A stretch of 64,000 nt of DNA from Eledone cirrhosa (taxonomy: Eukaryota): contig OZ024753.1 in NCBI GenBank assembly GCA_964016885.1, positions 31,992,001-32,056,000 on the forward strand, written 5' to 3'. Below the pieces are notes generated by a model that was not told the origin of the DNA, did no database searches, and saw only the letters and a program-made list of their open reading frames with translations. Position 1 is the stretch's first letter. The number at the start of each line of letters is the position of its first letter. The position numbers were made by a program, and so were the translations under genes. This document shows positions 3,360 through 30,760 of this stretch, piece by piece.

Positions 3360-4497
3360 GGTTTTCCGAAGGGGATCTTGAAGAAACTACAGTCAAATAA
3401 GGTATTCAATACATTAGTTGAGAAAATACCTATTTATTTACTATAGAAATTACTTCTACAGGATTAGTATTTCATTTGTTTTAAATCATCATGATTTCAA
3501 ACAAATAAGACAGTTCTAGTCTTCTAGAATTCAGTCCTGTATGATATATATATGTATATGTATTAATTTTGGATATATATATGTATATATATATTAATTT
3601 TGGATATATATATATATATTTGGTTTCTGAATTTGTTTAGCAAGATTCTTTATCTGAAAACGTGTGTTGAAACCGATATTGTTATACTTTGAAGTGAAAG
3701 CAACTGGTGCGTGTGTTTCTTATTGGCAACATGACCCTCCCAAAGTATAATAATATAAATATATATATATATATCACGATAAATTAACGGAAGCATAGGC
3801 CCTCGCTATTCCCTGTAAATAATGTGCTCAAAGGAGAAGAAATCCTGAGCTCTTTAAAATACAATATGTTGAAAAGGTAACACACCAGAGAGAGATATAC
3901 AGTGCGCTATCAATAAAACAGGGGAAAAAACCACCAGTGTATGGAATCTATAACCTATGAAAGGCAGACTATAGACACGATAATTAAAAATATAAATTAA
4001 AGCGTAAATAAATACCTCTATAACTATATAACACACGTACAAATCCATACATATATATATATATATATAAAATGGAATAGAATGAAATAAAATTTCATTT
4101 CTCACTCTTAGTACGGCACTTACTTAAATGTAAGTATGTATGTATACGTACATACATATATGTATACAGACGTACAGTAGCATGTATATATATATATATA
4201 TGTATATATATATACATGCAGGCACACATATATACATGTACGTATCAGTTTAGCGGACATTTATTATAATGTCCGCTTTGTTCGTTTGTAAACAAACGGA
4301 CAGCCTGATTTATGCCGTACGGTGTTAAGGCAACCACGTCACCTTTTTGTTCAACACTGACACAGGAACGATGTACTAGTTTCAAGCTTGTTAGCTATCG
4401 TCAGCACCGTATACCCTTATGCCAGATGGTTGAACGTTCGAAAGTATATACTTTCCTTATGAAAATTAACGGCTGAGCAGCCTAATTTGCATATCGA

Positions 4498-5703
4498 GTG
4501 AGTTCAGTTCATGAAAGCTCCATAGACCTCATCATGTACTCTCGTTATGTAGACGATATCAATATAGTTATAAGAACACCCCCACTAGAGAGCACTAACA
4601 AGTTTGATTTAGAACGTAGCACGATGGAAAGCATCCAGCAGATAGCTAATTCCATACACCAGAGTATAACTGTAACTATCGACTTCCCTTCCAAACACCC
4701 TAACAATAGACTACCTGTATTAGACACAGAACTCTGGATTAACACTATAGACGAGAGAGCCCAAATTCTCCACTCACACTATGCTAAACCCATGGCCTCC
4801 AAATACCTGATACTCAAAAACTCAGCAATGTCCAGTAGTGCTAAGTTTAATATTCTGATCGCAGATTTGGTACGAGTGATGAAGAATGTGTCCCGCATGT
4901 GCGACCCAACAGAAATGGAAAGACACATCCAACACTTCATCAACCGCATGCAGTTCTCTGGCTACAACCAAAGAGACAGAGTCAGAGTATACGAAGGAGC
5001 CATGGAAAAGTATAAGACCCTCATAGAACTGGACATGAAAGGAATTTGCCCATTATACAGGAGCAAATCATGGAATAGCTTAGATAGGGCTAGACATAAG
5101 ATAGGGAAAGCCACATCATGGTACGACAACCAGAGATACCAGAGTGTCATGTTTGTGGACGCCACCCCTGGAGGGAAATTAGCTAACCAGTGTAGAAAGG
5201 CCCTGAGAAAGACCCACTTAAAAATAAAGGTGGTAGAAAAGCCAGGAACCACCATAAAATCCCTGATCAGCAAAACCTACCCTTTTAAGAAAACCCACTG
5301 TACCAATAGGAAATGTATCATATGTAAGGTGAACCCCCGGATAAACTGTAAAACTAGAAACGTAGTCTATAGCATAAGATGTACAGAGGGTACTTGCAGA
5401 AACATGACAACAACATACATAGGTGAGACAGCTCGTAGCATAGGTGAAAGGATAGACCAACACTGGGGGGAATTAAAAGGACGAAAAAACGGGTCAGTAC
5501 TATACGAACATGCTAGACAACAACATGACGGTAACATAGACAACATAGAAATTAGAATAATATCTAAACATAGAAATGACCCAGCAGATAGGCAAATCAG
5601 AGAGGCCAGTGAAATAGAAATTAGAAGACCAAAGCTAAACAGAAAGAATGAATGGAATAACAACAACACCCAAACAAACAACACTGACCTAAGAGAAGTA
5701 TAA
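4498..5703 (+). mobile_element. Penelope-like element, 5'-truncated ORF (RT C-terminal part + GIY-YIG endonuclease)
   Basis: RYVDDI RT motif, LPVLDT, Cx4Cx2C linker, VVY..C..YIGET.RS...R...H and terminal E...LNRK typical of PLE GIY-YIG; open frame for 401 codons. Confidence 0.93.
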
Positions 5704-8263: not shown

Positions 8264-11200
8264 AGTGTATGTCAGTGTCAGTGTATGTCAGTGTATGTCA
8301 GTGTATGTCTGTGTCAGTGTATGTCAGTGTCAGTGTATGTCTGTGTCAGTGTATCTCTGTGTCAGTGTATGTCTGTGTCAGTGTATGTCAGTGTCAGTGT
8401 ATGTCAGTGTCAGTGTATGTCAGTGTCTGTCTATGTCTGTATCTGTGTATGTCTGTGTCAGTATATGTCAGTGTCAGTGTATGTCAGTGTCAGTGTATGT
8501 CAGTGTCAGTGTATGTCAGTGTCAGTGTATGTCAGTGTATGTCAGTGTATGTCAGTGTCAGTATATGTCAGTGTCAGTGTATGTCTGTGTCAGTGTATGT
8601 ATGTGTCAGTGTATGTCAGTATCAGTGTATGTCAGTGTCAGTGTATGTCTGTGTCAGTGCATGTCAGTGTCAGTCTATGTCAGTGTCAGTGTATGTCAGT
8701 GTCAGTGTATGTCAGTGTCAGTGTATGTCAGTGTATGTCAGTGTATGTCTGTGTCAGTGTATGTCAGTGTCAGTGTATGTCTGTGTCAGTGTATCTCTGT
8801 GTCAGTGTATGTCTGTGTCAGTGTATGTCAGTGTCAGTGTATGTCAGTGTCAGTGTATGTCAGTGTCAGTGTATGTCTGTGTCAGTGCATGTCAGTGTCA
8901 GTGTATGTCAGTGTATGTCAGTGTCAGTGTATGTCAGTGTCAGTGTATGTCAGTGTCAGTGTATGTCTGTGTCAGTGCATGTCAGTGTCAGTGTATGTCC
9001 GTGTATGTCAGTATCAGTGTATGTCTGTGTCAGTGTATGTCTGTGTCAGTGTATGTCTGTGTCAGTGTATGTCAGTGTCAGTGTATATCTGTGTCAGTGT
9101 ATGTCAGTGTCAGTGTATGTCTGTGTCAGTGTATGTCTGTGTCAGTGTATGTCTATGTCAGTGTATGTCAGTGTCACTGTATGTCTGTGTCAGTGTATGT
9201 CTGTGTCAGTTTATGTCAGTGTCAGTGTATGTCAGTGGCAGTGTACGTCAGTGTCAGTGTATGTAAGTGTCAGTGTATGTCTGTGTCAGTGTATGTCAGT
9301 GTCAGTGTATGTCAGTGTATGTCAGTGTCAGTGTATGTCAGTGTCAGTGTATGTCTGTGTCAGTGTATGTCAGTGTCAGTGTATGTCAGTGTCAGTGTAT
9401 GTCTGTGTCAGTGTATGTCAGTGTACGTCAGTGTCAGTGTATGTCTGTGTCAGTGTATGTCAGTGTCAGTGTATGTCTGTGTCAGTGTATGTCAGTGTCA
9501 GTGTATGTCAGTGTCACTGTATGTCTGTGTCAGTGTATGTCTGTGTCAGTTTATGTCAGTGTCAGTGTATGTCAGTGGCAGTGTATGTCTGTGTCAGCGT
9601 ATGTCTGTGTCAGTGTATGTCAGTGTCAGTGTATGTCAGTGTCAGTGTATGTCTGTGTCAGTGTATGTCAGTGTACGTCAGTGTCAGTGTAAGTCAGTGT
9701 CAGTGTATGCCTGTGTCAGTGTATGTCAGTGTCAGTGTATGTCTGTGTCAGTGTATGTCAGTGTCAGTGTATGTCTGTATCTGTATATGTCAGTGTCAGC
9801 GTATGTCAGTGTCAGTCTATGTCTGTGTCAGTGTATGTCTGTGTCAGTGTATGTCTGTGACAATGTATGTCATTGTCAGTGTATGCCAGTGTCACTGTAT
9901 GTCTGTGTCAGTGTATGTCTGTGTATGACAGTGTCAGTGTATGTCAGTGTCAGTGTATGTCAGTGTCAGTGTATGTCTGTGTCAGTGTATGTCAGTGTCA
10001 GTGTATCTCTGTGTCAGTGTATGTCAGTGTCAGTGTATGTCTGTGTCAGTGTATGTCTGTATCTGTGTATGTCTGTGTCAGTATATGTCAGTGTCAGTGT
10101 ATGTCTGTGTCAGTGTATGTCAGTGTCAGTGTATGTCAGTGTCAGTGTATGTCAGTGTATGTCTGTGTCAGTGTATGTCAGTGTCAGTGTATATCAATGT
10201 CAGTGAATGTCTGTGTCAGTGTATGCTGTGTCAGTGCATGACAGTGGCAGTGTATGTCTGAGTCAGTGTATGTCTGTGTCAGTCTATGTCTATGTCAGTG
10301 TATGTCAGTGTCAGTGTGTGTCAGTGTATGGCAGTGTCAGTGTATGTCTGTGTCAGTGTATGTCAGTGTCAGTGTATGTCAGTGTCAGTGTATGTCTGTG
10401 TCAGTGTATGTCAGTGTCAGTGTATGTTAGTGTCAATGTATGTGTCAGTGTCAGTGTATGTCAGTCTCAGTATATGTCTGTGTCAGTGTATGTCAGTGTC
10501 AGTGTATGTCTATATCAGTGTATGTCAGTGTATGTCAGTGTATGTCAGTGTCAGTGTATGTCAATGTCAGTGTATGTCAGTGTATGTCTGTGTCAGTGTA
10601 TATCAGTGTCAGTGTATGTCAGAGTCAGTGTATGTCTGTGTCAGTTTATGTCTGTCTCAGTGTATGTCTATATCAGTGTATGTCAGTGTCTGTGTATGTC
10701 TGTGTCAGTGTATGTCAGTGTCAGTGTATGTCAGTGTCAGTGTATGTCTGTGTCAGTGTATGTCTGTGTATGACAGTGTCAGTGTATGTCAGTGTCAGTG
10801 TATGTCAGTGTCAGTGTATGTCTGTGTCAGTGTATGTCAGTGTCAGTGTATGTCTGTGTCAGTGTATGTCAGTGTCAGTGTATGTCAGTGTCAGTGTATG
10901 TCTGTGTCAGTGTATGTCAGTGTATGTCTGTGTCAGTGTATACCTGTGTCAGTGTTTGTCAGTGTCACTGTATGTCTGTGTCAGTGTATGTCAGTGTCTG
11001 TCTATGTCTGTATCTGTGTATGTCTGTGTCAGTATATGTCAGTGTATGTCAGTGTCAGTGTATGTCAGTGTCAGTGTATGTCAGTGTCAGTGTATGTCAG
11101 TGTATGTCAGTGTCAGTATATGTCAGTGTCAGTGTATGTCTGTGTCAGTGTATGTATGTGTCAGTGTATGTCAGTATCAGTGTATGTCAGTGTCAGTGTA

Positions 11201-14200
11201 TGTCTGTGTCAGTGCATGTCAGTCTATGTCAGTGTCAGTGTATGTCAGTGTCAGTGTATGTCAGTGTATGTCAGTGTATGTCTGTGTCAGTGTATGTCAG
11301 TGTCAGTGTATGTCTGTGTCAGTGTATCTCTGTGTCAGTGTATGTCTGTGTCAGTGTATGTCAGTGTCAGTGTATGTCAGTGTCAGTGTATGTCAGTGTC
11401 TGTCTATGTCTGTATCTGTGTATGTCTGTGTCAGTATATGTCAGTGTCAGTGTATGTCAGTGTCAGTGTATGTCAGTGTCAGTGTATGTCAGTGTCAGTG
11501 TATGTCAGTGTATGTCAGTGTATGTCAGTGTCAGTATATGTCAGTGTCAGTGTATGTCTGTGTCAGTGTATGTATGTGTCAGTGTATGTCAGTATCAGTG
11601 TATGTCAGTGTCAGTGTATGTCTGTGTCAGTGCATGTCAGTGTCAGTCTATGTCAGTGTCAGTGTATGTCAGTGTCAGTGTATGTCAGTGTCAGTGTATG
11701 TCAGTGTATGTCAGTGTATGTCTGTGTCAGTGTATGTCAGTGTCAGTGTATGTCTGTGTCAGTGTATCTCTGTGTCAGTGTATGTCTGTGTCAGTGTATG
11801 TCAGTGTCAGTGTATGTCAGTGTCAGTGTATGTCAGTGTCAGTGTATGTCTGTGTCAGTGCATGTCAGTGTCAGTGTATGTCAGTGTATGTCAGTGTCAG
11901 TGTATGTCAGTGTCAGTGTATGTCAGTGTCAGTGTATGTCTGTGTCAGTGCATGTCAGTGTCAGTGTATGTCCGTGTATGTCAGTATCAGTGTATGTCTG
12001 TGTCAGTGTATGTCTGTGTCAGTGTATGTCTGTGTCAGTGTATGTCAGTGTCAGTGTATATCTGTGTCAGTGTATGTCAGTGTCAGTGTATGTCTGTGTC
12101 AGTGTATGTCTGTGTCAGTGTATGTCTATGTCAGTGTATGTCAGTGTCACTGTATGTCTGTGTCAGTGTATGTCTGTGTCAGTTTATGTCAGTGTCAGTG
12201 TATGTCAGTGGCAGTGTACGTCAGTGTCAGTGTATGTAAGTGTCAGTGTATGTCTGTGTCAGTGTATGTCAGTGTCAGTGTATGTCAGTGTATGTCAGTG
12301 TCAGTGTATGTCAGTGTCAGTGTATGTCTGTGTCAGTGTATGTCAGTGTCAGTGTATGTCAGTGTCAGTGTATGTCTGTGTCAGTGTATGTCAGTGTACG
12401 TCAGTGTCAGTGTATGTCTGTGTCAGTGTATGTCAGTGTCAGTGTATGTCTGTGTCAGTGTATGTCAGTGTCAGTGTATGTCAGTGTCACTGTATGTCTG
12501 TGTCAGTGTATGTCTGTGTCAGTTTATGTCAGTGTCAGTGTATGTCAGTGGCAGTGTATGTCTGTGTCAGCGTATGTCTGTGTCAGTGTATGTCAGTGTC
12601 AGTGTATGTCAGTGTCAGTGTATGTCTGTGTCAGTGTATGTCAGTGTACGTCAGTGTCAGTGTAAGTCAGTGTCAGTGTATGCCTGTGTCAGTGTATGTC
12701 AGTGTCAGTGTATGTCTGTGTCAGTGTATGTCAGTGTCAGTGTATGTCTGTATCTGTATATGTCAGTGTCAGCGTATGTCAGTGTCAGTCTATGTCTGTG
12801 TCAGTGTATGTCTGTGTCAGTGTATGTCTGTGACAATGTATGTCATTGTCAGTGTATGCCAGTGTCACTGTATGTCTGTGTCAGTGTATGTCTGTGTATG
12901 ACAGTGTCAGTGTATGTCAGTGTCAGTGTATGTCAGTGTCAGTGTATGTCTGTGTCAGTGTATGTCAGTGTCAGTGTATTTCTGTGTCAGTGTATGTCAG
13001 TGTCAGTGTATGTCTGTGTCAGTGTATGTCTGTATCTGTGTATGTCTGTGTCAGTATATGTCAGTGTCAGTGTATGTCTGTGTCAGTGTATGTCAGTGTC
13101 AGTGTATGTCAGTGTCAGTGTATGTCAGTGTATGTCTGTGTCAGTGTATGTCAGTGTCAGTGTATATCAATGTCAGTGAATGTCTGTGTCAGTGTATGCT
13201 GTGTCAGTGCATGACAGTGGCAGTGTATGTCTGAGTCAGTGTATGTCTGTGTCAGTCTATGTCTATGTCAGTGTATGTCAGTGTCAGTGTGTGTCAGTGT
13301 ATGGCAGTGTCAGTGTATGTCTGTGTCAGTGTATGTCAGTGTCAGTGTATGTCAGTGTCAGTGTATGTCTGTGTCAGTGTATGTCAGTGTCAGTGTATGT
13401 TAGTGTCAATGTATGTGTCAGTGTCAGTGTATGTCAGTCTCAGTATATGTCTGTGTCAGTGTATGTCAGTGTCAGTGTATGTCTATATCAGTGTATGTCA
13501 GTGTATGTCAGTGTATGTCAGTGTCAGTGTATGTCAATGTCAGTGTATGTCAGTGTATGTCTGTGTCAGTGTATATCAGTGTCAGTGTATGTCAGAGTCA
13601 GTGTATGTCTGTGTCAGTTTATGTCTGTCTCAGTGTATGTCTATATCAGTGTATGTCAGTGTCTGTGTATGTCTGTGTCAGTGTATGTCAGTGTCAGTGT
13701 ATGTCAGTGTCAGTGTATGTCTGTGTCAGTGTATGTCAGTGTCAGTGTATGTCTATGTCAGTGTATGTCAGTGTCAGTGTATGTCTGTGTCAGTGTATGT
13801 CTGTCTCGGTGTATGTCTGTGTCAGTGTATGTCAGTGTAAGTGTATGTCTGTCTCAGTGTATGTCTGTGTCAGTGTATGTCTGTGTCAGTTTTTATCTGT
13901 GTCAGTGTATGTCTGTGTCAGGTAACGTCAGTGTCAGTGTATGTCTGTGTCAGTGTATGTCTGTTTCTGTGTATGTCTGTGTCAGTGTATGTCAGTGTCA
14001 GTGTATGTCAGTGTCAGTGTATGTCTGTGTCATTGTATGTCAGTGTCAGTGTATGTATGTGTCAGTGTATGTCTGTGGCAGTGTCAGTGTCAGTGTATGT
14101 CTGTGTCAGTATATATCAGTGTCAGAGTATGTCTGTGTCTGTGACTGTCAATGTATGTCTGTGTCAGTGTATGTCTGTGTCAGTGTATGTCAGTGTCAGT

Positions 14201-15519
14201 GTATGTCTATGTCAGTGTATGTCAGTGTCAGTGTATGTCTGTGTCAGTGTATGTCTGTCTCAGTGTATGTCTGTGTCAGTGTATGTCAGTGTAAGTGTAT
14301 GTCTGTCTCAGTGTATGTCTGTGTCAGTGTATGTCTGTGTCAGTTTTTATCTGTGTCAGTGTATGTCTGTGTCAGGTAACGTCAGTGTCAGTGTATGTCT
14401 GTGTCAGTGTATGTCTGTGTCTGTGTATGTCTGTGTCAGTGTATGTCAGTGTCAGTGTATGTCAGTGTCAGTGTATGTCTGTGTCATTGTATGTCAGTGT
14501 CAGTGTATGTATGTGTCAGTGTATGTCTGTGGCAGTGTCAGTGTCAGTGTATGTCTGTGTCAGTATATATCAGTGTCAGAGTATGTCTGTGTCTGTGACT
14601 GTCAATGTATGTCTGTGTCAGTGTATGTCTGTGTCAGTGTATGTCAGTATCAGTGTGTGTGTCAGTGTCAGTGTATATCAGTGTCAGTGTATGTCAGTGT
14701 CAGTGTATGTCAGTGTCAGCGTATGTCAGTCTCAGTTTATGTCTGTGTCAGTGTATGTCTATGTCAGTATAAGTCTGTGTCAGCGTATGTCTATGTCAGT
14801 GTATATCTGTGTCAGTGTATGACAGTGTCAGTGTATACCGGTGTCAGTGTATGTCAGTGTCAGTGTATGTCAGTGTCAGTCTATGTCTGTGTCAGTGTAT
14901 GTCTCTGTCAGTGTATGTCAGTGTATGTCAGTGTCAGTGTATGTCAGTGTCAGTGTATGTCTGTGTCAGTGTATGCCAGTGTCAGTGTATGTCTGTGTAA
15001 GTGTATGTCAGTATCAGTGTATATCACGTCAGTACATGTCTCTGTCAGTGTATCTCAGTGTATGTCAGTGTATGTCTGTGTCAGTGTATGTTTGTGTCAG
15101 TGTATGTCTGTGTCAGTGTATGTCAGTGTCACTGTATGTCTGTGTCAGTATATGTCTGTGTCAGTGTATGTCAGTGTCAGTGTATGTCTCTGTCAGTGTA
15201 TGTCAGTGTCAGTGTATGTCTGTCTCAGTGTATCCCAGTGTCAGTGTATGTCTGTGTAAGTGTATGTCAGTGTAAGTGTATGTCAGTGTCACTGTATGTC
15301 AGTGTATGTCAGTGTCAGTGTATGTCTGTGTTAGTGTATGTCAGTGTCAGTGTATGTCTGTGTCAGTGTATGTCAGTGTCAGTGTATGTCTGTGTCAGTG
15401 TATGTCAGTGTCAGTGTATGTGTCAGTGTCAGTGTATGTCAGTATCAGTGTATGTCAGTGTCAGTGTATGTCTGTGTCAGTGTATGTCTGTGTCAGTGTA
15501 TGTCAGTGTCAGTGTATGT
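8264..15519. repeat. Satellite of GTCAGT / GTCTGT / GTAT units (16-bp GTCAGTGTCAGTGTAT and 10-bp variants) with higher-order repeats
   Basis: Directly visible; rare variants and ORF-track entries recur at offsets 2973 (9267/12240, 9867/12840) and 454 (13841/14295, 13941/14395). Confidence 0.97.
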
Positions 15520-17350: not shown

Positions 17351-17438
17351 CTTTTAATTTTTTTAAATATATATATATATAGTGCAAATTTATACGGGAA
17401 CAGAACAGAGAGGCAGACAAATAAAGGTTTATTAGGTT

Positions 17439-17505
<67 letters not shown>

Positions 17506-17506
<1 letters not shown>

Positions 17507-18477
17507 TAGCTGTACTAGACACAGAGCTCTGGTTAGATACCATTAATAACAAAAAACAAATCCTCCATTCCCATTATGCCAAACCCATGACTTCCAAACA
17601 TCTGATCCACCGAAACTCGGCCGTTTCGGACCATACCAAAATCAACATACTGATTGCGGATTTGGTACGGGTGATGAGAAACGTATCCCGCATGTGCAAC
17701 CCCGAAGAACTAGAGAGACATATACAACACTTCATCCACCGTATGCAGTTCTCTGGCTACAATCAGAGAGATAAAATCAGAGTGTATAGAGGAGCCAGAA
17801 CCAAATGGGAAAAAATGGTAAATAATGACATAAATGGGACCTGCCCCTTGTATAGGAGCAAATTTTGGAATAGAATAGAAAGAACTAGGAACAAGGCTAA
17901 TAGAATAAACTTATGGTATGATAGCAATAAATACCAGAGTGTAATGTTCATCGATACAACCCCTAGAGGTGAATTAGCTTACAAATTTAGAAGGGCCCTA
18001 AATAAACATAAACTCAATATTAAGATAGTAGAAAGACCAGGTACCTCCGTAAAAACACTTATTAGCAAGACATACCCTTTTCAAAGACCCTCATGTATAG
18101 ATAAGAAATGTATAACCTGTAAAATAAACCCCCATATTAACTGTAAAACTAGAAATGTAGTGTATAGCATAAGATGTACTGAAGGACAATGTAGAGACAA
18201 AAATATAGTGTACATAGGTGAGACAGCTCGTAGTGTAGGGGAATGGATAAATGAACACTGGCGAGACCTTCAAGATAGTAAAGAATCATCTGTACTCTAC
18301 CAACATGCTAAAATAGAACACAAGGGTAAATTAGAGAACATAGAAATAAAAATAGAATCTACACACAGAAAAGACGCAATGTTTAGACAAATTACAGAGG
18401 CAATAAACATAAAAGAATTACAACCAAAATTAAATAGAAAATATGAGTGGAACAGCAACATCACAACTTACAATTAA
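17506..18477 (+). mobile_element. Second Penelope-like element, 5'-truncated (RT thumb/linker + GIY-YIG)
   Basis: Starts right after (TA)n at LAVLDTELW; collinear with 4498-5703 (NILIADLVRVM, MQFSGYNQRD, CKTRNVVYSIRCTEG, YIGETARS, LNRK.EW). Confidence 0.93.
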
Positions 18478-18870: not shown

Positions 18871-19000
<130 letters not shown>

Positions 19001-19263
19001 GTTTCTTTTATTTGCCACCAGGGCATCAAAAGTGGGACAAGTACAATGGGGGGAGTTTACAAAACAAGGCGTCCTCAATAAGGAGGAGGCAATAACAATA
19101 TATAAAAATAAAATAAAATATAACAAAAATAAAATTTATAACAAAGTCCTCAATAGAGAGGAGGCGCCTTGGGGGGTCGCACACCCCCCCGAAAAAAGTG
19201 TGCAACCCTTTCCCCTCAGGAGCACAGAGAAGGGGTGCTCCCTTGGTCTTTCATCTTCCTCAC

Positions 19264-22200
19264 CTATAGTCTGATGTAGAGTGAAGGCCCATTCACACGG
19301 GCCATTCTCGCCACTTTCACCCATCTTTCATAGAAACGGCTGGGGTGCAGCACCTCTCTCTCCATCCTGATCCTTCTTCCGAAATGATATCGGAAGAAAC
19401 GGACCAGTTGTTGGCCAGAGAGAAAGGTGTCTGACCTCAGTCCTTTCAGACGCGTCCACCATACAACCTCTTTCGCCATGGCTATTACGCACTGAAACAC
19501 CGCCTCTCCTTCGTTTTTGAAGAGGGGAGGCGGCTTGATCGTTACAATAGACTCGGTGGTCAACCGGATCGGTCCCACCCTTGACAGCAGTTGTTCGACA
19601 TAGCCCCACAGATCGGCAATGCCCGAGCAGTGTACCAATGCGTGTGCAACGGTTTCCTCGTCGCACACGCATCTGGGACAGATCTTTTTCGATGGGTCCC
19701 TACCCGGGTGCCCGTGTCTGTAGAGCCTTTCTCGAATGGGCAGAGCCCTTCTGTAGCATTGCCAGGCCAGGGACCTCTGGAAGTTATCCATGGGTCCCGG
19801 GCTGAATGTCCTACCGAACAGGTTGGCCAGTTCGTCTTCCTCCATGCCTAGGGCTTCTCCGAGGGTGTCGTCGCACCTGCTAACCACCAGCCCTCTATAG
19901 AATGACGAGGTGGATTCTCCACTGACAGCCGGGTCCGCCTGCCAGAGAGCCGTGAGCGCCTGGGCACACTCGGTGTGCCAGGCGCCCAGTTTTCTCGGTC
20001 TTTGCTTGACCCAGGATTGCAGCTCGGTGAGTGAGACGAGTCTGGGAAAGGCTCGCCTCACAAACGGGGCCCACACCGGTTGACCGGAGAGGAATACCTG
20101 AAGGTGCCGTAGCCTTAATGCGTGTTTACGTATCATTAGCCACGGCATCCCCAGCCCTCCTTTCGAAGGGTGTTGACAGCAGATGGATCTCCTCACCATA
20201 GGAGCCCGCTTCTTCTAAAGGAATTGGAAGAGTGCGCGCTCCATTTTGGCGAGCGTTTCCCTTGGGCAAGGCACGACGGTCAGGCGGTAGTAGATGACGG
20301 ACGCTATATAAGTGTTCGCCACCTCCGCCCGACCTTTCAGGGACAGTTTGCACTCGGCCCACTTCTGGGTCAGTGCAAACACCCTGTTCGTCACCTCACC
20401 CCAGTTCTTCTCCACCTGGAGGTCTGGTCCGAACCAGACCCCGAGCAACTTCACCGGGCCCTCCGTCCAGCGCCCGACGACGCCATCGGAGGGCATCGAT
20501 TTGCCCCTCCACGTGCCGAGTTGCAGACCGATCGACTTGTCCCGGTTCAGCTTAGCCCCTGTAAACCTTTCGTACTCCTCCAGTAAGGTGCCGATCGCCC
20601 CGATTTCCGAGGCCGTCGACACCATTACTGTTACGTCATCGGCGTAGGCTGACACCGCTTTCCGCAATCCCGGTTCCAACGGGATGCCCTGCAACAACTC
20701 CAATTTCCGCAGCAGTGGCTCTAGAGTCATTACATACAGAAGGGAGGAGAGAGGGCACCCCTGTCGGATGGACCGCGCGATTTCGAACGGCTCCGAGAGG
20801 TAGCCGTTCACCTTGACCCTAGAGCAGATGCGGCTGCTGTGCATGGCATTGATCCAGCCCCTCAAAACGGTTCCGAAGCCTGCCGCCGCTAGCACCGCAT
20901 CCAGGTAACCATGGTCGACCCTATCGAATGCCTTAGATTGATCTAAGTTGATCAGGGCCCCACCAAAGCCGGGTTCGTTCCCAACCCTCTCTATGATGTA
21001 TCGCATGAGGTGGATTTTATCGTGGATGGACCTGGACGGGATAGCACATGTCTGCGCATCTCCCACCAGGTTGCCCACGACAAGCGTCAACCTCTTTGCT
21101 AGCACCTTGGCCAAAATCTGTAACTCTGTATTTAGCAGAGTTATGGGCCTGAAATTATTTATATCGTCCCCCTTGTTCTCGTCCTTCCTCACTAGCGTGA
21201 CTACGCCCTTGGTCACAGCACAGGGAATTCTCCCGTTCTGTTGCCAGTTGCAGTAGACCGCCTCGAGGAGATCGGGGAACAAGTCCGGCATAGCTAGATA
21301 TAGTTCGTATGGAAGACCATCGAGACCCGGGGATTTGCGTTTGCCGCATTGGCTCAGCACGTCCTCTATCTCAGCGGCTGAAATCGGCTCCTCGCAGGAC
21401 TTCGCCTCCCTGTCCGAGAGACGCGGCAGGCCGTCGAGGTATGGACCGAAGTCCACGTCCCCAACCGGCCCCCCGTCCCTTCCGAACAATCCGGCAAAGT
21501 GCTTTTGAAAAGCCTCGCACATCTGCTTAGGTTCAAAGATCACCCGTCCATCCTGGTCTCGCAAAGACCGGATAATGGATCTGCTCCATCTTTTGGCTTC
21601 TGTCACGCGGGCCCAGCTAACAGCTTTGGTCCCCTCGTTTCCCAGAGCACGTATTTTGCTTCGGACGATGCAGCCTTCGTGTTTCGCGTCGAAGAACTGG
21701 CCCAGGGCCGTTCTCGACGCTAGCACTCTGGCCACGTCGCCGCTTCTAATTGCCTCTTCTACACTATCTACCAACTCCCTTTCCTTCCTGTTTCTATTGG
21801 AGGCTAACTCCTTACTAAATTCTATAGAGACTACTCTAATCTCTCTTTTGAGAGATCCCCACCACCTGCTGTTGACGATTGCGCCCGTCAACCGCTCCCT
21901 AACTAAGGTGCTAATCCGGTCCCTGTAAGCCTTACTTGCCGGTAAGGACAAGTTGAGCTTCCAGTAACCGGGTCCCTGTCTATGAGTTCTGTCAAGGTTG
22001 ATCATGCAGGTCACTAACTTGTGGTCTGAATAGCCAACCATGCGCATTTTTGGACAACTTAAAAAGTTCTTATCCTTAATTCTAACTAAGAACCTATCTA
22101 GGTACGACCTAGATGATCCGCTACGATTTGCCCAAGTCCAGATTGGCGCAGTCGGAAAATCTAGTCGATATCTATCGGCCAGGTCAAATCGACCGATTAA

Positions 22201-22701
22201 CCCTTTGAGGCTATTACACCCCTCTCTATCGGGACAGGCCCCTACGTAGTCCCAGCGTGCATCTAGGATACCATTCCAGTCCCCCACTAATAGCAAGGAG
22301 CGGGACGTCCCTAGAAAAGTCTTCAGACGATGGAAGAAGTCCGGCCGCATTGACCCGAAAGGGCCGTAGGCGGCTACCAACCTAAACGCTCCGCCTTTAC
22401 CACTGCCAAGGTCCAGAACCACTAGTCGACCCTCCGGGTCCAAATGTACCATCTGTGTTGCGAGACCCAGATGTTTTTGCAGCAGAACGACAACTCCACC
22501 CCCACCTCCGGGCTGACAGAGAGATGCGTGCATCTCAAAGTCATCAAAGGTGGGGGCCAGCTGTCGCACGTTGCTGATCCGGGCCTCGCAAATAACCATC
22601 ACATCTATACGTTGTGACCTGAGGTCATTTAGAAGCATTGCTTGCTTCCAAGTTGAGCCCAGGCCACACGCATTTAAACAGCCTACTCTTAGCATAGCCA
22701 T
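19264..22701 (-). pseudogene. Tx1 ORF2 (APE endonuclease-RT-zinc knuckle) with one nonsense codon at 20215-20217
   Basis: VGDWN, YLDRF, SDH; FRPITLLN, DQSKAFDRV, QGCPLS, YADD; CPRC..ETVAHALVHC. TAG replaces the TGG (FLWK) of copy B. Confidence 0.93.
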
Positions 22702-22725
22702 GTTGGTGGTGAAGAGAAAAGGCAC

Positions 22726-24513
22726 TTACCTCTCTGCGTCCCGGGTATCGGGCTGCACAATTTCCATTAGGGTGGGGGATGGGTTGTTGGGTGGGGTGGT
22801 GGTTTGTGGAAGTGTAGGGGCATCAGTGTGTTGTGTGGTTGGGGAGCTTTGAGTTGTGTGGGTGTTTGGGGAGGGGGTGGGATAGTTTTTTAGGAGGACG
22901 CGGTTAATGGGCCCGGCGCAGGGGGGACCCACGTCCTCTTTAAAATTGTTTTTTAAAGTTTTATAGGTGTCCTGTGGGGCCTTAATCATTTTGAGGTGGG
23001 GGAAATCCCCTGCCTGGGTGAAGTTAGGCCCTTGTGTTTTTATTAGATTGTTGTTGTACACAATGTTTAACAGTTTTTTGTTTCTTGTATTTATGTATGT
23101 GTATGCATGTTTTTGTTTTTGTGTGGTTTTTTTTGTTTGCTGTTGTTGTGAGCTCTTTTGTGTTGGTGTCAGTGTTATGTTTTGGGGAGGGGTTGTTTTC
23201 ATTTGTGTGTCTGAGGTGTGTTTTCTTTTTTTTCTTTTGATTGTGTGGAAGTGCTCCTCCTCGTCTGACGACGAACTAGGGTCATCTTCCGCGTTGGAGG
23301 GGAGGGGTATATTTTCGGGTTGTGTTTGCGGTACGGGTGTTTTGGAAATTGTTTTTGTTTTTTGAGTGGAGGGGATGGGTTGGACATTGTTTTGTTTTGG
23401 TTTGAGCTGTGGTGGTTGTTTTTGTAGTGGTAGTTGTGGTGATTGTGTTGGTTGTGCAGTTGTTGGTGGTGTAGGCAGGATTGGGGCTTTCTTATTAAGT
23501 TGGGGACAGACAGCCCTCAGGTGACCTCTGGTTCCGCAGAGGTAACACGAGGGCCGTCTACCCTCAACGGTAATGTTGATGAAGGTTAGATCATCCAGTA
23601 TGACGCGTTCAGGGATCTGGGCGATCCTTTCGGGCCTCATTTGAACTACAAGTTCGAGGCTCGTTCCACTGAACGCGTCACCCGATGCCTTTCCCATGGA
23701 CACCAGCATGTCATCCTCCAGGTCCAGAAAACCTGTCAAAACCCACCATATGTCCATAATCGGCAGGATGGTGTGGATTTTTATTTTTTGTGTTCTTCTA
23801 CCCATGTACGTAGGGTAGAATGTGTATGCGGTGGGTGTGATTGGTTTGATGGACAGTTTCACTGCTGTGTCCCTGTCCTTCATGAGAATGGATAGACTCC
23901 CGTAGAGTCTATCCTTCTGAATGAAGATGATGTCCTTCATGACGTCTTTTAAAACCAGCTCTATCTCACTCTGTGATGGTTGAGCTGGTTTTTTACTTTT
24001 GTTCGAGATTGTCCTAAACATGACCGTGTTTAGGAGTCTCTGGCTTTTTAGTTCCGGTGGGGAATGGATTGTGAATGAACCATTTTCTCCGTACACTATA
24101 TATTTTTTCGCATCCGCCAGTAGCTCCTTCGCTTTTGTTATATCTACTGGCAGATAGTCGAGGGTTTTCCTTGTCGTCTCGGCGAAGGAGAAATTTTGTT
24201 TGTTTGTGTTGTTGTTGTCGTTGGTGGTGTTGTTGTTATCATTGTTGTTGTTGTCACCGTTATTGGTCTTGTTGTTGTTGTTATTGTTATTGGTGTTGTT
24301 TTCGTCCGTCGCATTGTTGTTGTTGTTGCTGTTGCTGCTGGTTCTTTGGGTTGTTGCCATGGCAACGTCAAGTTGTCGGTTAACAGGTGGAGAGAATTCT
24401 TCCTCTGGCTGACCTTTCTTCTTGACCTCTGCTACTGTGACAGTGGCAGGGGGAAGCTGTAAGTTTATCTTCCCCTTTCCTCCTTCGAATTTTGGTGAAG
24501 AAGCTTCGGCCAT
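22726..24513 (-). CDS. Tx1 ORF1 (gag-like nucleic-acid-binding protein), copy A
   Basis: 595 aa; CCHC knuckle CYLCGTRGHLRAVC, poly-Asn tract, P/Q/T-rich region, basic KRKKRK. Confidence 0.9.
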   Translation of the reverse strand: MAEASSPKFEGGKGKINLQLPPATVTVAEVKKKGQPEEEFSPPVNRQLDVAMATTQRTSSNSNNNNNATDENNTNNNNNNNKTNNGDNNNNDNNNTTNDNNNTNKQNFSFAETTRKTLDYLPVDITKAKELLADAKKYIVYGENGSFTIHSPPELKSQRLLNTVMFRTISNKSKKPAQPSQSEIELVLKDVMKDIIFIQKDRLYGSLSILMKDRDTAVKLSIKPITPTAYTFYPTYMGRRTQKIKIHTILPIMDIWWVLTGFLDLEDDMLVSMGKASGDAFSGTSLELVVQMRPERIAQIPERVILDDLTFINITVEGRRPSCYLCGTRGHLRAVCPQLNKKAPILPTPPTTAQPTQSPQLPLQKQPPQLKPKQNNVQPIPSTQKTKTISKTPVPQTQPENIPLPSNAEDDPSSSSDEEEHFHTIKRKKRKHTSDTQMKTTPPQNITLTPTQKSSQQQQTKKTTQKQKHAYTYINTRNKKLLNIVYNNNLIKTQGPNFTQAGDFPHLKMIKAPQDTYKTLKNNFKEDVGPPCAGPINRVLLKNYPTPSPNTHTTQSSPTTQHTDAPTLPQTTTPPNNPSPTLMEIVQPDTRDAER

Positions 24514-24732
24514 TTAAAAAAAATATTGACTTTTCAACAAGAAAAAACTTTTTTTTTGTTTAACTATTTCGCCTAAAGGCGTAGAATATTTTGAGAGACT
24601 GACCAGATCAAAGTTTGACCTGGCAGTCCCTCTACAAAATGGTACAAAAATTAAGGTTATCAGACAAGAATTTCTATAGAAATTTAAACAGAACTTACTC
24701 AGCAAGTTATACGCGTGTGTCCATCCCAGAGA

Positions 24733-24763
24733 TAATAGATAGATAGATAGATAGATAGATAGT

Positions 24764-24841
<78 letters not shown>
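24733..24841. repeat. (GATA)n spacer between Tx1 copies A and B
   Basis: About 27 units, directly visible. Confidence 0.97.
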
Positions 24842-24842
<1 letters not shown>

Positions 24843-25105
24843 GTTTCTTTTATTTGCCACTAGGGCATCAAAAGTGGGACAAGTACAAAGGGGGGAGTTT
24901 ACACAAAAAGGCGTCCTCAATAAGGAGGAGGCAATAACAAAATATAAAAATAAAATAAGATATAACAAAAAATAAAATTTTTAACAAAATCCTCAATAGA
25001 GAGGAGGCGCCTTGGGGGGTCGCACACACCCCCGAAAAAAGTGTGCAACCCTTTTCCTCAGGAGCACAGAGAGGGGGTGCTCCCTCGTTCCTTCCTCTTT
25101 TCCAC

Positions 25106-28100
25106 CTACAGGCTTATGTAAAGAGAAGGCCCATTCACACGGGCCATTCTCGCCACTTTCACCCACCTTTCATAAAAACGACTGGGGTGCAGCACCTCTC
25201 TCTCCATCCTGATCCTTCTTCCGAAATGATATCGGAAGAAACGGACCAGTTGTTGGCCAGAGAGAAAGGTGCCTGACCTCAGTCCTTTCAGACGCGTCCA
25301 CCATACAACCTCTTTCGCCATGGCTATTACGCACAGAAACACCGCCTCTGCTTCATCTTTGAAGGGGGGAGGCGGCTTGATCATTACAATAGACTCGGTG
25401 GTCAACCGGATCGGTCCCACCCTTGACAGCAGTTGTTCGACATAGCCCCACAGATCGGCTACGCCCGAGCAGTGTACCAATGCGTGTGCAACGGTTTCCT
25501 CGTCGCACACGCATCTGGGACAGATCTTTTTGGCGGGGTCCCTACCCGGGCGCCCGTGTCTGTAGAGCCTTTCTCGAACGGGTAAAGCCCCTCGGTAGCA
25601 CTGCCAGGCCAGGGACTTCTGGAAGTTGTCCATAGGTCCCGGGCTGAATGTCCTACCGAACAGGCTGGCCAGTTCGTCCTCCTCCATGTCTAGGGCTTCT
25701 CCGAGGGCGTCGTCGCACCTGCTGCGTACCAGCCCTCTATAGAATGTTGCGGTGGAGTCTCCACTGATAACCGGATCCGCCTGCCAGAGGGCGGTGAGCG
25801 CCTGGGCACACTCAGTGTGCCAGGCGCCCAGTTTTCTCGGTCTTTGCTTGACCCAGGATTGCAGCTCGGTGAGTGAGACGAGTCTGGGAAAGGTTCGTCT
25901 CACAAACGAGGCCCACACCGGTTGTCCGGTGAGGAATACGTAGAGGTGCCGTAGCCTTAATGCGTGTTTACGCATCATTAGCCACGGCATCCCCAGCCCT
26001 CCTTTCGAAGGGTGTTGACAGCAGATGGATCTCCTCACCATAGGAGCCCGCCTCTTCCAAAGGAATTGGAAGAGCGCGCGCTCCATCTTGGTGAGGGTTT
26101 CCCTTGGGCAGGGCACTACGGTCAGGCGGTAGTAGATGACGGACGCTATATAAGTGTTCGCCACCTCCGCCCGACCTTTCAGGGATAGTTTGCAATTGGC
26201 CCACTTCTGGGTCAGTGCAAACACCCTGTTCGTAACCTCCGCCCAGTTTTTCTCCACCTGGAGGTCCGGTCCGAACCAGACCCCGAGCAACTTCACCGGG
26301 CCCTCCGTCCAGCGTCCGACGACGCCATCAGAGGGCATCGGTCTGCCCCTCCACGTGCCGAGTTGCAAACCGATTGACTTGCCCCGGTTCAGCTTAGCCC
26401 CTGTGAACTTTTCGTACTCCTCCAGTAAGGTGCCGACCGCCTCGATTTCGGAGGCCGTCGACACCATTACTGTCACATCATCGGCGTAGGCTGACACCGC
26501 TTTCCGCAATCCCGGTTCCAAAGGGATGCCCTGCAACAACTCCAACTTCCGCAGTAGTGGCTCGAGAGTCAACACATACAGAAGGGAGGAGAGAGGGCAC
26601 CCTTGTCGGATGGACCGCGCGATTTTGAACGGCTCCGAGAGGTAGCCGTTCACCTTGACCCTAGAGCCGATGCGGCTGCTGTGCATAGCAGTGATCCAGC
26701 CCCTGAAAACGGGTCCGAAGCCTGCCGCCGCTAGCACCGCATCCAGGTAACCATGGTCGACCCTATCGAACGCCTTTGATTGATCCAAGTTGATCAGAGC
26801 CCCACCAAAGCCGGGTTCGTTCCCAACCCTCTCTATGATGTATCGCATGAGGTGGAGGTTGTCATGGATGGACCTGGACGGGATAGCGCATGTCTGCGCA
26901 TCTCCCACCAGGTTGCCCACGACAAGCGCCAACCTCTTTGCTAGCACCTTGGCCAAAATCTGTAACTCTGTATTTAGCAGAGTTATGGGCCTGAAGTTAC
27001 TTATTTCGTCCCCCTTGTTCTCGTCCTTCCTCACTAGCGTGACTACGCCCTTGGTCACAGTACAGGGAATTCTCCCGTTCTGTTGCCAGTTGCAGTAGAC
27101 CGCCTCGAGGAGATCGGGGAACAAGTCCGGCATAGCTAGATATAATTCGTAAGGAAGACCATCGAGACCCGGGGATTTGCGTTTGCCGCATTGGCCCAGC
27201 ACGTCCTCTATCTCAGCGGCCGAAATCGGCTCCTCGCAAGACTTCGCCTCCCTGTCCGAGAGGCGCGGCAGGCCGTCGAGGTATGGACCGAAGTCCACGT
27301 TTCCAACCGGCTCCCCGCCCCTCCCGAACAGTCGGGCAAAGTGCCTTTGAAAGGCCTCACACATCTGCTTAGGCTCAAGAATCGCCCGTCCATCCAGGTC
27401 TCGCAAAGACCGGATGGTGGATTTAGTTCCACTGTTGGCCTCTGTCACGCGGGCCCAGCTAACAGCTTTGGCCCCCTCGTTCCCTAGAGCACGTATTTTA
27501 CTTCGGACAACGCAGCCTTCGTGCTTCGCGTCGAAAAACTGGCTCAAAGCCGTTCTCGACGCTAGCACTCTGGCCACGTCGCCGCTTCTAATTGCCTCTT
27601 CTACTCTATCTATTAGCTCCCTTTCCTTCCTATTCCTATCCGCAGCTAGAACCTTACTAAATTCAATCGAGACTACTCTAATCTCTCTCTTTAGAGATAC
27701 CCACCACCTGCTGTTGACGATCGCTCCAGTCAACCGTTCCTTAACTAACGTACTAATCCGATTCCTGTAGGCTCTACTTGCCGGCAAGGACAAGTTGAGC
27801 TTCCAGTAACCGGGGCCCTGTCTATGCGTTCTATCAAGGTTGACCATGCAGGTCACCAACTTGTGGTCTGAATAGCCAACCATGAGCATTTCTGGACAAC
27901 TTAAAAAGTCCCTGTCCTTATTTCTAACTAAAAATCTATCTAGGTACGATCTAGATGATCCGCTGCGATTTGACCAAGACCAGGTTGGCACCGTCGGAAA
28001 ATCTAGTCGAAATCTATCGGCCAGGTCAAATCGGCCGAGTAACCCCTTGAGGCTGTTGCACCCCTCTCTATCGGGACATGCCCCTGCATAGTCCCAACGT

Positions 28101-28543
28101 GCATCCAGGATACCATTCCAATCCCCCACTAAAAGCAGGGAACGGGACGTCCCTAGAAAAGACTCCAGACGCTGGAAAAAGTCGGGCCGCTCTGTCCCAA
28201 AAGGGGCATATGCGGCTATCAGCCTAAAGGCTCTACCTTCACCACTGCCAAGGTCCAGCACCACCAGTCGACCCCCTGGGTCCACGTGAACTATCTGTGT
28301 TGCAAGGCCCATATGTTTTTGCAGCAGAACGACAACCCCACCCCCACCTCCGGGCTGACAGAGAGATGCGTGCATCTCAAAGTCGTCAAAGGTGGGGGCT
28401 AGCTGTCGCATGCTGCTGATCCGGGCCTCGCAGATAACCATCACATTTATAGATTGTGACCTGAGGTCATTTAGAAGCATTGCTTGCTTCCAAGACGAGC
28501 CCAGGCCACGCGCATTTAGACACCCTACTCTTAGCACAGCCAT
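25106..28543 (-). CDS. Tx1 ORF2 (APE endonuclease, reverse transcriptase, C-terminal zinc knuckle), intact
   Basis: LNARGL, ICE, VGDWN, SDH; SPGLDG, KAFDRV, RQGCPLS, AYADD; CPRC..H...C; first ATG at 28543. Confidence 0.95.
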   Translation of the reverse strand: MAVLRVGCLNARGLGSSWKQAMLLNDLRSQSINVMVICEARISSMRQLAPTFDDFEMHASLCQPGGGGGVVVLLQKHMGLATQIVHVDPGGRLVVLDLGSGEGRAFRLIAAYAPFGTERPDFFQRLESFLGTSRSLLLVGDWNGILDARWDYAGACPDREGCNSLKGLLGRFDLADRFRLDFPTVPTWSWSNRSGSSRSYLDRFLVRNKDRDFLSCPEMLMVGYSDHKLVTCMVNLDRTHRQGPGYWKLNLSLPASRAYRNRISTLVKERLTGAIVNSRWWVSLKREIRVVSIEFSKVLAADRNRKERELIDRVEEAIRSGDVARVLASRTALSQFFDAKHEGCVVRSKIRALGNEGAKAVSWARVTEANSGTKSTIRSLRDLDGRAILEPKQMCEAFQRHFARLFGRGGEPVGNVDFGPYLDGLPRLSDREAKSCEEPISAAEIEDVLGQCGKRKSPGLDGLPYELYLAMPDLFPDLLEAVYCNWQQNGRIPCTVTKGVVTLVRKDENKGDEISNFRPITLLNTELQILAKVLAKRLALVVGNLVGDAQTCAIPSRSIHDNLHLMRYIIERVGNEPGFGGALINLDQSKAFDRVDHGYLDAVLAAAGFGPVFRGWITAMHSSRIGSRVKVNGYLSEPFKIARSIRQGCPLSSLLYVLTLEPLLRKLELLQGIPLEPGLRKAVSAYADDVTVMVSTASEIEAVGTLLEEYEKFTGAKLNRGKSIGLQLGTWRGRPMPSDGVVGRWTEGPVKLLGVWFGPDLQVEKNWAEVTNRVFALTQKWANCKLSLKGRAEVANTYIASVIYYRLTVVPCPRETLTKMERALFQFLWKRRAPMVRRSICCQHPSKGGLGMPWLMMRKHALRLRHLYVFLTGQPVWASFVRRTFPRLVSLTELQSWVKQRPRKLGAWHTECAQALTALWQADPVISGDSTATFYRGLVRSRCDDALGEALDMEEDELASLFGRTFSPGPMDNFQKSLAWQCYRGALPVRERLYRHGRPGRDPAKKICPRCVCDEETVAHALVHCSGVADLWGYVEQLLSRVGPIRLTTESIVMIKPPPPFKDEAEAVFLCVIAMAKEVVWWTRLKGLRSGTFLSGQQLVRFFRYHFGRRIRMEREVLHPSRFYERWVKVARMARVNGPSLYISL

Positions 28544-28567
28544 GTTGGTGGTAAAGAGAAAAGGCAC

Positions 28568-30210
28568 TTACCTCTCTGCGTCCCGGGAAACGGGCCGCTC
28601 AATTTCCATGCTGGTTGGGGATGGGTTGTTGGGTGGGGTTGTGGTTTGTGGAAGTGAAGGGGCATCGGTGTGTTGTGGGGTTGGGGTGTTTGTCGTTGAG
28701 TGGGTGTCTGGGTGAGGTGGGGGGGTGAAATTTTTTAGGAGGACGCGGTTGATTGGTTTGGCGCAGGGGGGGCCCACGTCCTCCGTGAAATTTATTTTCA
28801 GTGTTTTGTACAAGTGCATTGGGACTTTTATCATTTTCAAATGAGGTAGTCCCACAGCAGTTATAAAGTTTGGCCCTTCGGTTTGGACCGAAGGGTTTGC
28901 TGAAATTGTTTTCCGTAATTCTTTGTTGTCTGTGTTCATGTATGTGTATTGTAATGTCTTTTTTTGTGTAGCAGTTAGTGTTGTGTGACAGGGAGGGGTG
29001 GTTTGTGTGTAGTTTGTGTTCTCTTGGGGGGGATTAAAGTTAACATGTGTGTCTGTGGTGCGTCTCCTCTTCTTTCTTTTTACTTGTTGGAAGGGATCTT
29101 TTTCGTCTTGCGACGAAAGAGGTTCGTCTTCCTTGTTGGGTGGGAGGGGTATGTTTTCTGGTAGTGTTTGCGGTGTGCGTGTTTTTGTATTTGTTTTGGG
29201 TGGGGAGGGATTGGGTGGGACAGTATTCTGTGTTATTTTTTCACGTGTTTGTTGTTGTTGTTGTTGTGGTGGTGGTGGTGGGGTTGTTGGTTTTTGTTGT
29301 TGTTGTGGTTGTTTTTGTTGTTGTAGTTGGGGTGGTGTTGGTGTTGGTAGCAGTGTTTTTTTCTGTGTGAGCTGGGGACAGGCAGCCCTCAGGTGACCTC
29401 TATTGCCACAGAGGTAACAGGAGGGACGCCTACCCTCCACAATAATGTTGAGGTGGGTACGGTCATCCAGCATGACGCGCTCAGGGATTTGGGCGATGCG
29501 TTCTGGCCTTATTTGGGTCAGAACTTCGATGCTCGTTCCACTGAACGCGTCGCCGGATGCCTTCCCTATTGAGATGAGGTTGTCCTCGTCTAAATTGAGG
29601 AAACCGGTTAGTAACCACCAGTAGTTTATGTTTGGGGTGATGGTGGTTATCCATATCCTCTGGGTTTTTTTACCCATGTAGGTAGGGAAGAAGGTGTAGT
29701 GTGTGGACCGAATTGGCGACACAGAGTATTTTTTTGCCGCCAATTCGTCTTTCATCAATATGGATAAACTCCCATAGAGTTTATCCTTTTGTATGAAAGT
29801 GATGTCTCTCATCGCGTCTTTCAAGACTAACTGAGTTTCCGCTTGAGATGGTTGCGCTGGTTTCTTTGTTTTATTTAAAATTGTTCGGAATACGACAGTT
29901 CGTAATTCCGTCTGTCTTTTTAGCTCCGGAGGTGAATGTATAGAAAACGATCCGTTTTCACCAAAAGACACATATTTCTTGGCTTTTTCCAGCATTTCTT
30001 TTGCTTTTGAAATATCTTCCAGCACATAAGCGACTGATAATTTAGCCGTTTGTGCAAAAGATATTTTGTTTTCGTTTTGGATATTAGTATTGTTTTGTTT
30101 CTCGTCGTTTGAGTTGTTTTCATCTTTGTTGTTGTTGTTGTCTTTCTCGTTTCGTGTGTGGATACTTGTGACGTTTGTGTTGTTGTTGTTTTTGTTGTCT
30201 TTATTGTTGC

Positions 30211-30241
<31 letters not shown>

Positions 30242-30418
30242 GTTTTCAAATTCTTGTGTAGTTGTGGCTACATCTAGTGGTCGGTCAACAGGTGAAGACA
30301 ATTCTTCCTCTCTCTGACCTCTGCCTTTGGCATCTGCTGCTGTGACAGTGGCAGGGGGAAGCTGTGAGTATAACTTCCCCTTTCCTTCTTTGATTGATGG
30401 TGAAGATGATTCAGCCAT
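28568..30418 (-). CDS. Tx1 ORF1, copy B
   Basis: CYLCGNRGHLRAAC knuckle; collinear with copy A ORF1; first ATG at 30418. Confidence 0.9.
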
Positions 30419-30648
30419 TTTTCTCAAAATAGGGTTTTTCGAAGTTTTTCGAAAGATAAAATGTTCACAATACTATTTCGCCCAAAGGCGCAGAATATTT
30501 TGAGAGACCGACCAGATCAAAATTTGACCTGGCAGTCCCTCTACAAAATGATACAAAAATGAAAGTTTACAGTTTACAATTTCCGTATGAATTTAAACAA
30601 AAACTTACCGAGCGAGCTCAGCACATGTGTCCATCGTAGATTAGATAA

Positions 30649-30760
30649 CTTTCTTTTTATTTGCCACCAGGGCATCAAAAAGTGGGACAAGTACAATGGG
30701 GGGAGTTTACATGAAAAGGCGTCCTCAATAAGGAGGAGGCAATAACAAAATATAAAAATA
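30649..30760 (-). mobile_element. 3'-terminal stub (copy C) of the same Tx1 family
   Basis: Near-identical to 19001-19110; bounded by (GATA)n(GA)n on one side and a short TATC-like spacer on the other. Confidence 0.9.

Follow-up and report, generated by a model that had tools for sequence, protein, structure and literature searches.

A perfect 5' splice-site sequence at the ORF1 stop codon of two related LINE families, and its possible role in making ORF1-only RNA

The stop codon that ends ORF1 in a LINE of Eledone cirrhosa lies inside a perfect 5' splice-site sequence, AG/GTAAGT (the slash marks the donor boundary), and the same donor stands 1 nt past the ORF1 stop of a distantly related sister family. 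In the reading that fits best, this donor, called D2 here, would be functional: splicing from it would take out ORF2 and yield an ORF1-only RNA, and the unspliced RNA would give ORF2 by reinitiation. The probability of this reading is put at roughly 0.45, from comparison of the sequences.

Results

The window contains two tandem copies of an L1-group LINE. The window is the whole stretch of DNA analysed, 64,000 nucleotides of contig OZ024753.1. It is rich in microsatellites and animal-like, and the junction and both LINE copies are on its minus strand (Table 1). Copy c2 is followed head to tail by copy c1, with (TATC)n between them, and a fragment holding only a 3' end precedes c2. The element has no LTRs, its 3' end carries AATAAA and a simple-repeat tail, and 5'-truncated copies exist. 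Within ORF2, Pfam places PF03372 at 33-227 and PF00078 at 512-755, so the APE domain is N-terminal to the reverse transcriptase; the cysteine motif matches PF13966 at E 4e-5, below the curated cut-off. Among solved proteins the best match is human LINE-1 ORF2p, to positions 8-881 of which the ORF2 profile aligns with E 6e-104, and the match to R2 is weaker (E 6e-35). Both copies are L1-group APE LINEs (L1/Tx1 clades).

Table 1. Positions of the LINE copies and of their coding and candidate splicing features in the window
Feature	Position	Strand	Remark
LINE copy c2, full length	24840..30636	-	ORF1 and ORF2 open
LINE copy c1, full length	18990..24726	-	directly downstream of c2; ORF2 broken
Third copy, 3'-end-only fragment	30642..30760	-	directly upstream of c2
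(TATC)n/(GATA)n microsatellite separating c1 and c2	24730..24841	.	likely target or tail
c2 ORF1, 616 aa	28568..30418	-	CCHC knuckle; PF00098 E 0.003, below curated cut-off
c2 ORF2, 1145 aa	25106..28543	-	APE endonuclease, reverse transcriptase, C-terminal cysteine motif
c1 ORF1, 595 aa	22726..24513	-
c1 ORF2	19264..22701	-	in-frame stop at 20214-20212
AATAAA, c2 3' end	24849..24854	-
AATAAA, c1 3' end	19007..19012	-
D2 donor AG/GTAAGT containing ORF1 stop, c2	28566..28573	-	donor G at 28571
D2 donor AG/GTAAGT containing ORF1 stop, c1	22724..22731	-	donor G at 22729
Inter-ORF spacer, c2, 24 nt	28544..28567	-	pyrimidine-rich, without AG
Inter-ORF spacer, c1, 24 nt	22702..22725	-
Candidate 68-nt 5' UTR intron, c2	30541..30608	-	predicted; D1 (GTAAGT) to acceptor A1 (TTTTGTAG)
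Candidate 67-nt 5' UTR intron, c1	24632..24698	-	predicted; D1 to A1

Older relatives and other repeats are also present. At 47277-47838 (plus strand) and 43943-44025 (minus strand) are two relatives of this LINE that lack its 5' part and are about 80-83% identical to it. TATC-like sequence flanks the first of these on its 5' side, as well as c1, c2 and one contig loose end, which are few sites; the arrays of the sister family described below have no (TATC)n-like repeat at their flanks. A 7.3-kb satellite with a 16-bp unit (about 460 copies) occupies 8264-15519. Two related open frames on the plus strand, 4486-5703 and 17425-18477, end in a region containing YIGET and have no Pfam match; we take them to resemble the reverse transcriptase end and GIY-YIG nuclease of Penelope-like elements.

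The single TAA closing ORF1 sits inside a perfect donor in both copies, and ORF2 continues in the same frame. Each junction reads GAG AG/G TAA GT, and the 24-nt spacer (CCTTTTCTCTTYACCACCAAC) leads to the ATG of ORF2 at 22701 (c1) or 28543 (c2). An earlier sequence-only reading of this DNA had described such an arrangement, and it is confirmed here for c1 and c2 on the minus strand. An in-frame pair of ORFs is ordinary in itself, since human L1 is also described with an in-frame spacer, one of 63 nt with two in-frame stops (PMC5860796). The spacer is better conserved between c1 and c2 than nearby silent sites: one of its 24 bases differs, compared with 32 of the 127 four-fold sites that lie within ORF2 codons 1-300 and 73 of 512 across the whole of ORF2.

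It is the position of D2 that exceeds chance, judging from its comparison with the independent family B below, and not its count. The window holds AGGTAAGT twice, against 2.6 expected from shuffles, which is not above chance, and c1 and c2 count as one family rather than as two independent cases. Each copy has exactly two sense GTAAGT hexamers, namely D2 and a second donor, D1, about 28 nt from the 5' end. A U-rich stretch is found directly 3' of most donors, and it would fit a TIA-1-type downstream enhancer of U1 recruitment, as such enhancers are described (PMC4027183, PMC2964331), better than a 3' tract. Folding of the junction and of the 5' UTR intron gave no structure beyond that of shuffled sequences (junction z -0.88 to +0.37), and the idea of a hairpin masking the donor was dropped on this account. 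When four of six contig-only runs were aligned to c2, none of the 15 joints listed among 361 began at 28571 or 30608, and none of the 40 variant rows listed among 1,594 fell in the spacer; these two results carry no weight either way.

The best acceptor of the window's element is in the 5' UTR, upstream of D2. With a crude home-made score, not trained on this host, this site, A1, takes the top place among 369 AGs in c2 and shares it in c1. A strong conserved acceptor downstream of D2 was not found in the element. In simulated D2-A1 joins the tails of c1 and c2 are not alike, and joining D2 to the AG at the ORF2 stop ends ORF1 exactly in c1 and not in c2; neither is counted as support. The c1 ORF2 stop (19262-19264, minus strand) is followed by GTGAGG, a fair donor, which is not so in c2.

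Several features of the 5' UTR deserve mention in their own right. The candidate intron between D1 and A1 has ends that are conserved between c1 and c2 and a middle that has diverged, and an intron retained in a LINE 5' UTR is odd in itself. Both copies start with an upstream ATG (ATGGACAC), at 30634 and 24724 on the minus strand. Its reading frame is 5-9 codons long without splicing, and D1-A1 splicing would lengthen it to 33 codons in c2 only. The approximately 70 nt past A1 (about 30540-30470 and 24631-24560) are far better conserved between the copies than the flanking UTR or ORF1, and they are possibly a promoter or an RNA element. The sequence-only reading had overlooked both the second GTAAGT in each 5' UTR and the in-frame stop in c1 ORF2.

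A sister family carries the same donor in a different arrangement. A scan of prokaryote assemblies yielded 65 related LINE loci (L001-L065) in two metagenome-assembled genomes, G001 and G002. Contigs C3-C19 of G001 have arrays of up to about ten head-to-tail copies with a period of 6.4-6.8 kb, and contig C16 of G002 has decayed dispersed copies. These contigs bear microsatellites and are eukaryote-like, and they are likely mis-binned host DNA. The family, B, is 40% identical to the window's family (A) in ORF2 and about 25% in the ORF1 core, and its PF00098 match in ORF1 is above the curated cut-off. Its junction reads GAG TAA G/GTAAGT, then 7 nt to the ATG, with a 14-nt spacer. The donor lies 1 nt after the ORF1 stop, and ORF1 and ORF2 are out of frame.

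The donor is retained in all intact genomic copies seen. AG/GTAAGT is kept 1 nt past the ORF1 stop at 64 of the 65 family B loci, which are arrays in two assemblies and not independent events; the exception is decayed and dispersed. The base right after the GTAAGT hexamer varies among these loci, and the 43 loci compared comprise 11 subfamilies below 93% 3' UTR identity. Four dispersed copies in G002 include one diverged copy that keeps a perfect donor with a different stop and spacing, and three that are damaged.

The more distant LINEs compared lack the donor at this place. Controls were drawn from 81 such loci. Automatic assignment found both the start of the endonuclease and an ORF upstream of it in 34 of them, and the remaining 47 were dropped. 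In all 34, AGGTAAGT is missing between -5 and +20 of the ORF1 stop. As a background, the AG/GTAAGT 8-mer is found in 7 of 9,440 stop-triplet windows, and a donor score of at least 8 out of 9 in 83 of them. Two outgroup loci come near: L112 has a near-consensus donor at its ORF1 stop, and L093 has GAG/GTAAGT 160 nt into a long inter-ORF spacer.

The distribution of D2 within the clade is uneven. In trees made up mostly of unnamed sequences, families A and B belong to one clade with support of 1.0, and they straddle its deepest split (FastTree supports 0.999-1.0). Family C (L155) is in the same clade; instead of a perfect D2 it shows an overlap of stop and start, TAATG, at L155:12622-12626. D2 is therefore present in two of the three clade families for which DNA was available, and by sequence comparison it may either have been ancestral and lost in family C or have been gained twice. 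The conservation of GTAAGT in relatives, which the sequence-only reading had named as a check, holds for family B and fails for family C. The ORF2 proteins of several families start with methionine at about the same place.

Other searches added little. Scans of metagenome and viral contigs with an endonuclease alignment gave no loci, and a scan with a reverse transcriptase alignment gave one distant match in the viral collection. Searches of the genomes around G001 (49 genomes) and G002 (14 genomes) added no usable new family, and a weak extra match, L169 in G022, has no recognisable ORF2 start. The last residues of 24 ORF1 homologues were compared and were not informative.

Donors recur at two further places in the related families. 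D1 is also found in the 5' UTR of nine of the 11 family B subfamily representatives, in some of which it is followed by the same TGTTTAAATT as D1 of c1 and c2. A third donor, D3, lies just 3' of the ORF2 stop in all 13 aligned family B sequences, alternating between GTAAGT and GTGAGT. One family B subfamily has its ORF2 stop inside D3, just as the ORF1 stop is inside D2 in the window. Family C has CAG/GTAAGT 40 nt past its ORF2 stop, and a conserved D3 was not found in the window's family. In family B a pyrimidine-TAG acceptor about 240 nt 3' of D3 is kept in the subfamilies. Candidate 3' UTR introns (donor/acceptor L022:7486/7736, L041:7486/7728 and L155:9573/9717, with spacing of 140-250 nt) are retained in all intact copies of families B and C that were seen.

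All of the D2 and D3 donors are close to stop codons. Counted from the first base of the stop in question, every one falls between -1 and +43 nt. In mammals, a junction within 50-55 nt of the stop is described as not triggering nonsense-mediated decay (PMC10045457), and D2 and D3 are all inside this decay-avoiding zone, although the mammalian rule is perhaps not that of the host.

Spliced copies are absent from the genomic DNA searched. The 64 junctions in G001 are all unspliced and the one match in G002 is an unspliced mutant, and joins of D3 to an acceptor number zero in G001 and G002; the arrays searched are near-identical and few in origin.

Discussion

D2 looks selected, since it is kept in family B, is absent at this place from all 34 distant LINEs compared and is rare in the background. 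LINEs copy themselves through RNA, so that any working intron in them should disappear, and a splice site in a LINE is usually regarded as a liability. In the preferred reading, U1 snRNP would recognise D2. Some transcripts would then lose ORF2 by splicing between D2 and a distal acceptor and become ORF1-only mRNA. The unspliced RNA would give ORF2 by reinitiation at its own AUG. It would also be the template for new copies, and for this reason genomic copies would keep their donors. Such splicing would serve to make ORF1 protein in excess of ORF2 protein. Distal splicing that leaves an ORF1-only RNA was one of several routes offered by the sequence-only reading, and reinitiation was another. 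The two together agree best with the comparisons made here. Against them stand the lack of a strong downstream acceptor in the window's element, the lack of spliced DNA copies, which human L1 does leave, the missing D2 of family C and the damaged junctions of three of four dispersed family B copies.

The predicted acceptor differs between the families. In family B it would be the conserved 3' UTR site, shared with D3. In the window's family the candidates would be A1 of the tandem copy that follows, A1 of the element itself (by back-splicing), the weak YAG where ORF2 stops, or an acceptor in host sequence. The strongest partner in the window would be A1, which would belong either to the next copy, with a 3.9-kb intron, or to the same copy in a back-splice. 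A more ambitious and rather speculative scheme is that the clade runs retrovirus-like splicing. ORF1 would be an exon from the 5' UTR acceptor to D2, donors would flank both stops, and ORF2 would be excised onto the next tandem copy or by back-splicing, which would give a circular RNA of about 1.97 kb that codes for ORF1. Reverse transcription would be confined to unspliced RNA, so the introns would survive.

It is doubtful that the D2 motif results from chance or convergence or has a role unrelated to U1, for example as a reinitiation element, with ORF2 made by termination and reinitiation and no splicing at all. In the window's family TAA itself gives three of the eight bases of the donor, but in family B a perfect donor lies past the stop and borrows only its last A. 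The count of the motif in the window equals expectation, yet the background frequency at stop triplets is low (7 of 9,440 windows). Chance would be in keeping with a motif carried by two families only and missing in family C; it does not explain why D1 and D3 recur as well, varying along the splice consensus. Reinitiation as a route to LINE ORF2 is reported as established for SART1 and L1 (PMC5972666).

A second alternative, rather unlikely on present evidence, is that D2 binds U1 snRNP and is rarely spliced. It would then suppress premature cleavage and polyadenylation near the A-rich end of ORF1, or govern the fate of the full-length RNA. This would account both for a donor that is conserved while the window's family offers it no partner acceptor and for the absence of spliced DNA copies. 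AATAAA or ATTAAA is found about 200-400 nt upstream of D2 in c1, c2, L022, L041 and L048, and D1 is about 50-160 nt past the AATAAA of the preceding tandem copy. U1 is described as having a second role of this kind in the Copia element EVD (PMC5580714). However, the poly(A)-like hexamers of ORF1 are at non-homologous places, even between c1 and c2, and that of L001 is 790 nt away. Binding of U1 also leaves unexplained why donors hug stop codons and why family B has kept its 3' UTR acceptor. It is compatible with the splicing of ORF1-only RNA, and the two are not exclusive.

Removal of a 42-nt micro-intron to fuse ORF1 to the ORF2 endonuclease, as the sequence-only reading had suggested, is very improbable. 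The join itself is reproduced in both copies: cutting from D2 to the first AG gives an in-frame ...DAER-VGCLN, and the spacer is pyrimidine-rich and conserved. The AG at +42 ranks only 203 of 369 acceptors in c2 and 210 of 369 in c1, by the crude score, and the pyrimidine tract adjoins the donor rather than this AG. The splice would also delete M-A-V-L, that is, the start methionine of ORF2 itself and Leu4, which is nearly invariant among 11 aligned ORF2s and aligns with Ile8 at the start of the human L1 endonuclease. Fusion by splicing from D2 is impossible in family B, where the ORF1 stop comes before the donor; the two reading frames also differ there. Among the 150 ORF1 homologues listed of 3,210, none carries an APE or reverse transcriptase domain, although spliced fusions would not show in such databases, and the closest 44 ORF2 homologues are at most 1,158 aa long. 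Least credible is readthrough or RNA editing of the TAA to make an ORF1-ORF2 polyprotein, which the single stop and shared frame of c1 and c2 would permit, but the junction folds no better than shuffles, the frame is not kept in families B or C, and a G directly after TAA makes for efficient termination.

The preferred reading, ORF1-only RNA made by splicing at D2, would have several consequences. If D2 is truly kept across families that are 40% alike, these would be LINEs that use the host spliceosome or U1 on purpose. Splicing would be a second answer, beside reinitiation, to the question of how ORF1 protein can far exceed ORF2 protein, and it would represent convergence on a strategy of plant Copia elements. 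It would also raise the question of how unspliced RNA is chosen for reverse transcription.

Comparison with known elements

The literature that could be searched, short of most subscription journals and Repbase, gave no account of a LINE with a conserved donor where ORF1 stops. In general organization the window's element resembles the other L1-group LINEs, including human LINE-1 and Tx1-clade elements such as Kibi and Koshi. These have the same two ORFs, with APE, reverse transcriptase and cysteine motif in ORF2, and a short spacer between the ORFs. Tx1-clade elements are described as tandem copies in microsatellites, like c1 and c2, and Kibi and Koshi as microsatellite-targeting members of the clade (PMC4494074). 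Human L1 is reported to have splice sites in its 5' UTR and ORF1 that produce deleted or ORF2-only RNAs, and to leave spliced genomic copies that are dead ends (PMC5860796, PMC2896524). The window's element is unlike human L1 in having a perfect donor at the ORF1 stop that is common to families 40% alike.

Family C has the arrangement of SART1, in which a UAAUG stop-start overlap is described as serving translational coupling (PMC5972666). The TAATG of family C thus supports reinitiation as the route to ORF2 in this clade. Unlike SART1, the window's family and family B have no overlap, with spacers of 24 nt and 14 nt.

The closest likeness in working is to plant Ty1/Copia elements. These elements, among them Arabidopsis EVD, are described as producing a GAG-only RNA by splicing at a conserved site where GAG ends, and U1 as also blocking early termination there (PMC5580714). 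Families A and B, and not C, likewise keep a 5' splice-site sequence where their structural ORF ends; an RNA for the structural protein alone is predicted here, and unspliced RNA would keep the catalytic ORF. Copia elements have LTRs and a single GAG-POL frame; their short intron spans the protease, and early termination is coupled. The window's element is non-LTR with two separate ORFs, its predicted intron would be all of ORF2, and ORF2 is free of AATAAA in each of seven copies checked. The resemblance to the short GAG RNA of Copia can thus be only one of working and not of kind, with two unlike elements perhaps using a donor at the end of the structural ORF in the same way.
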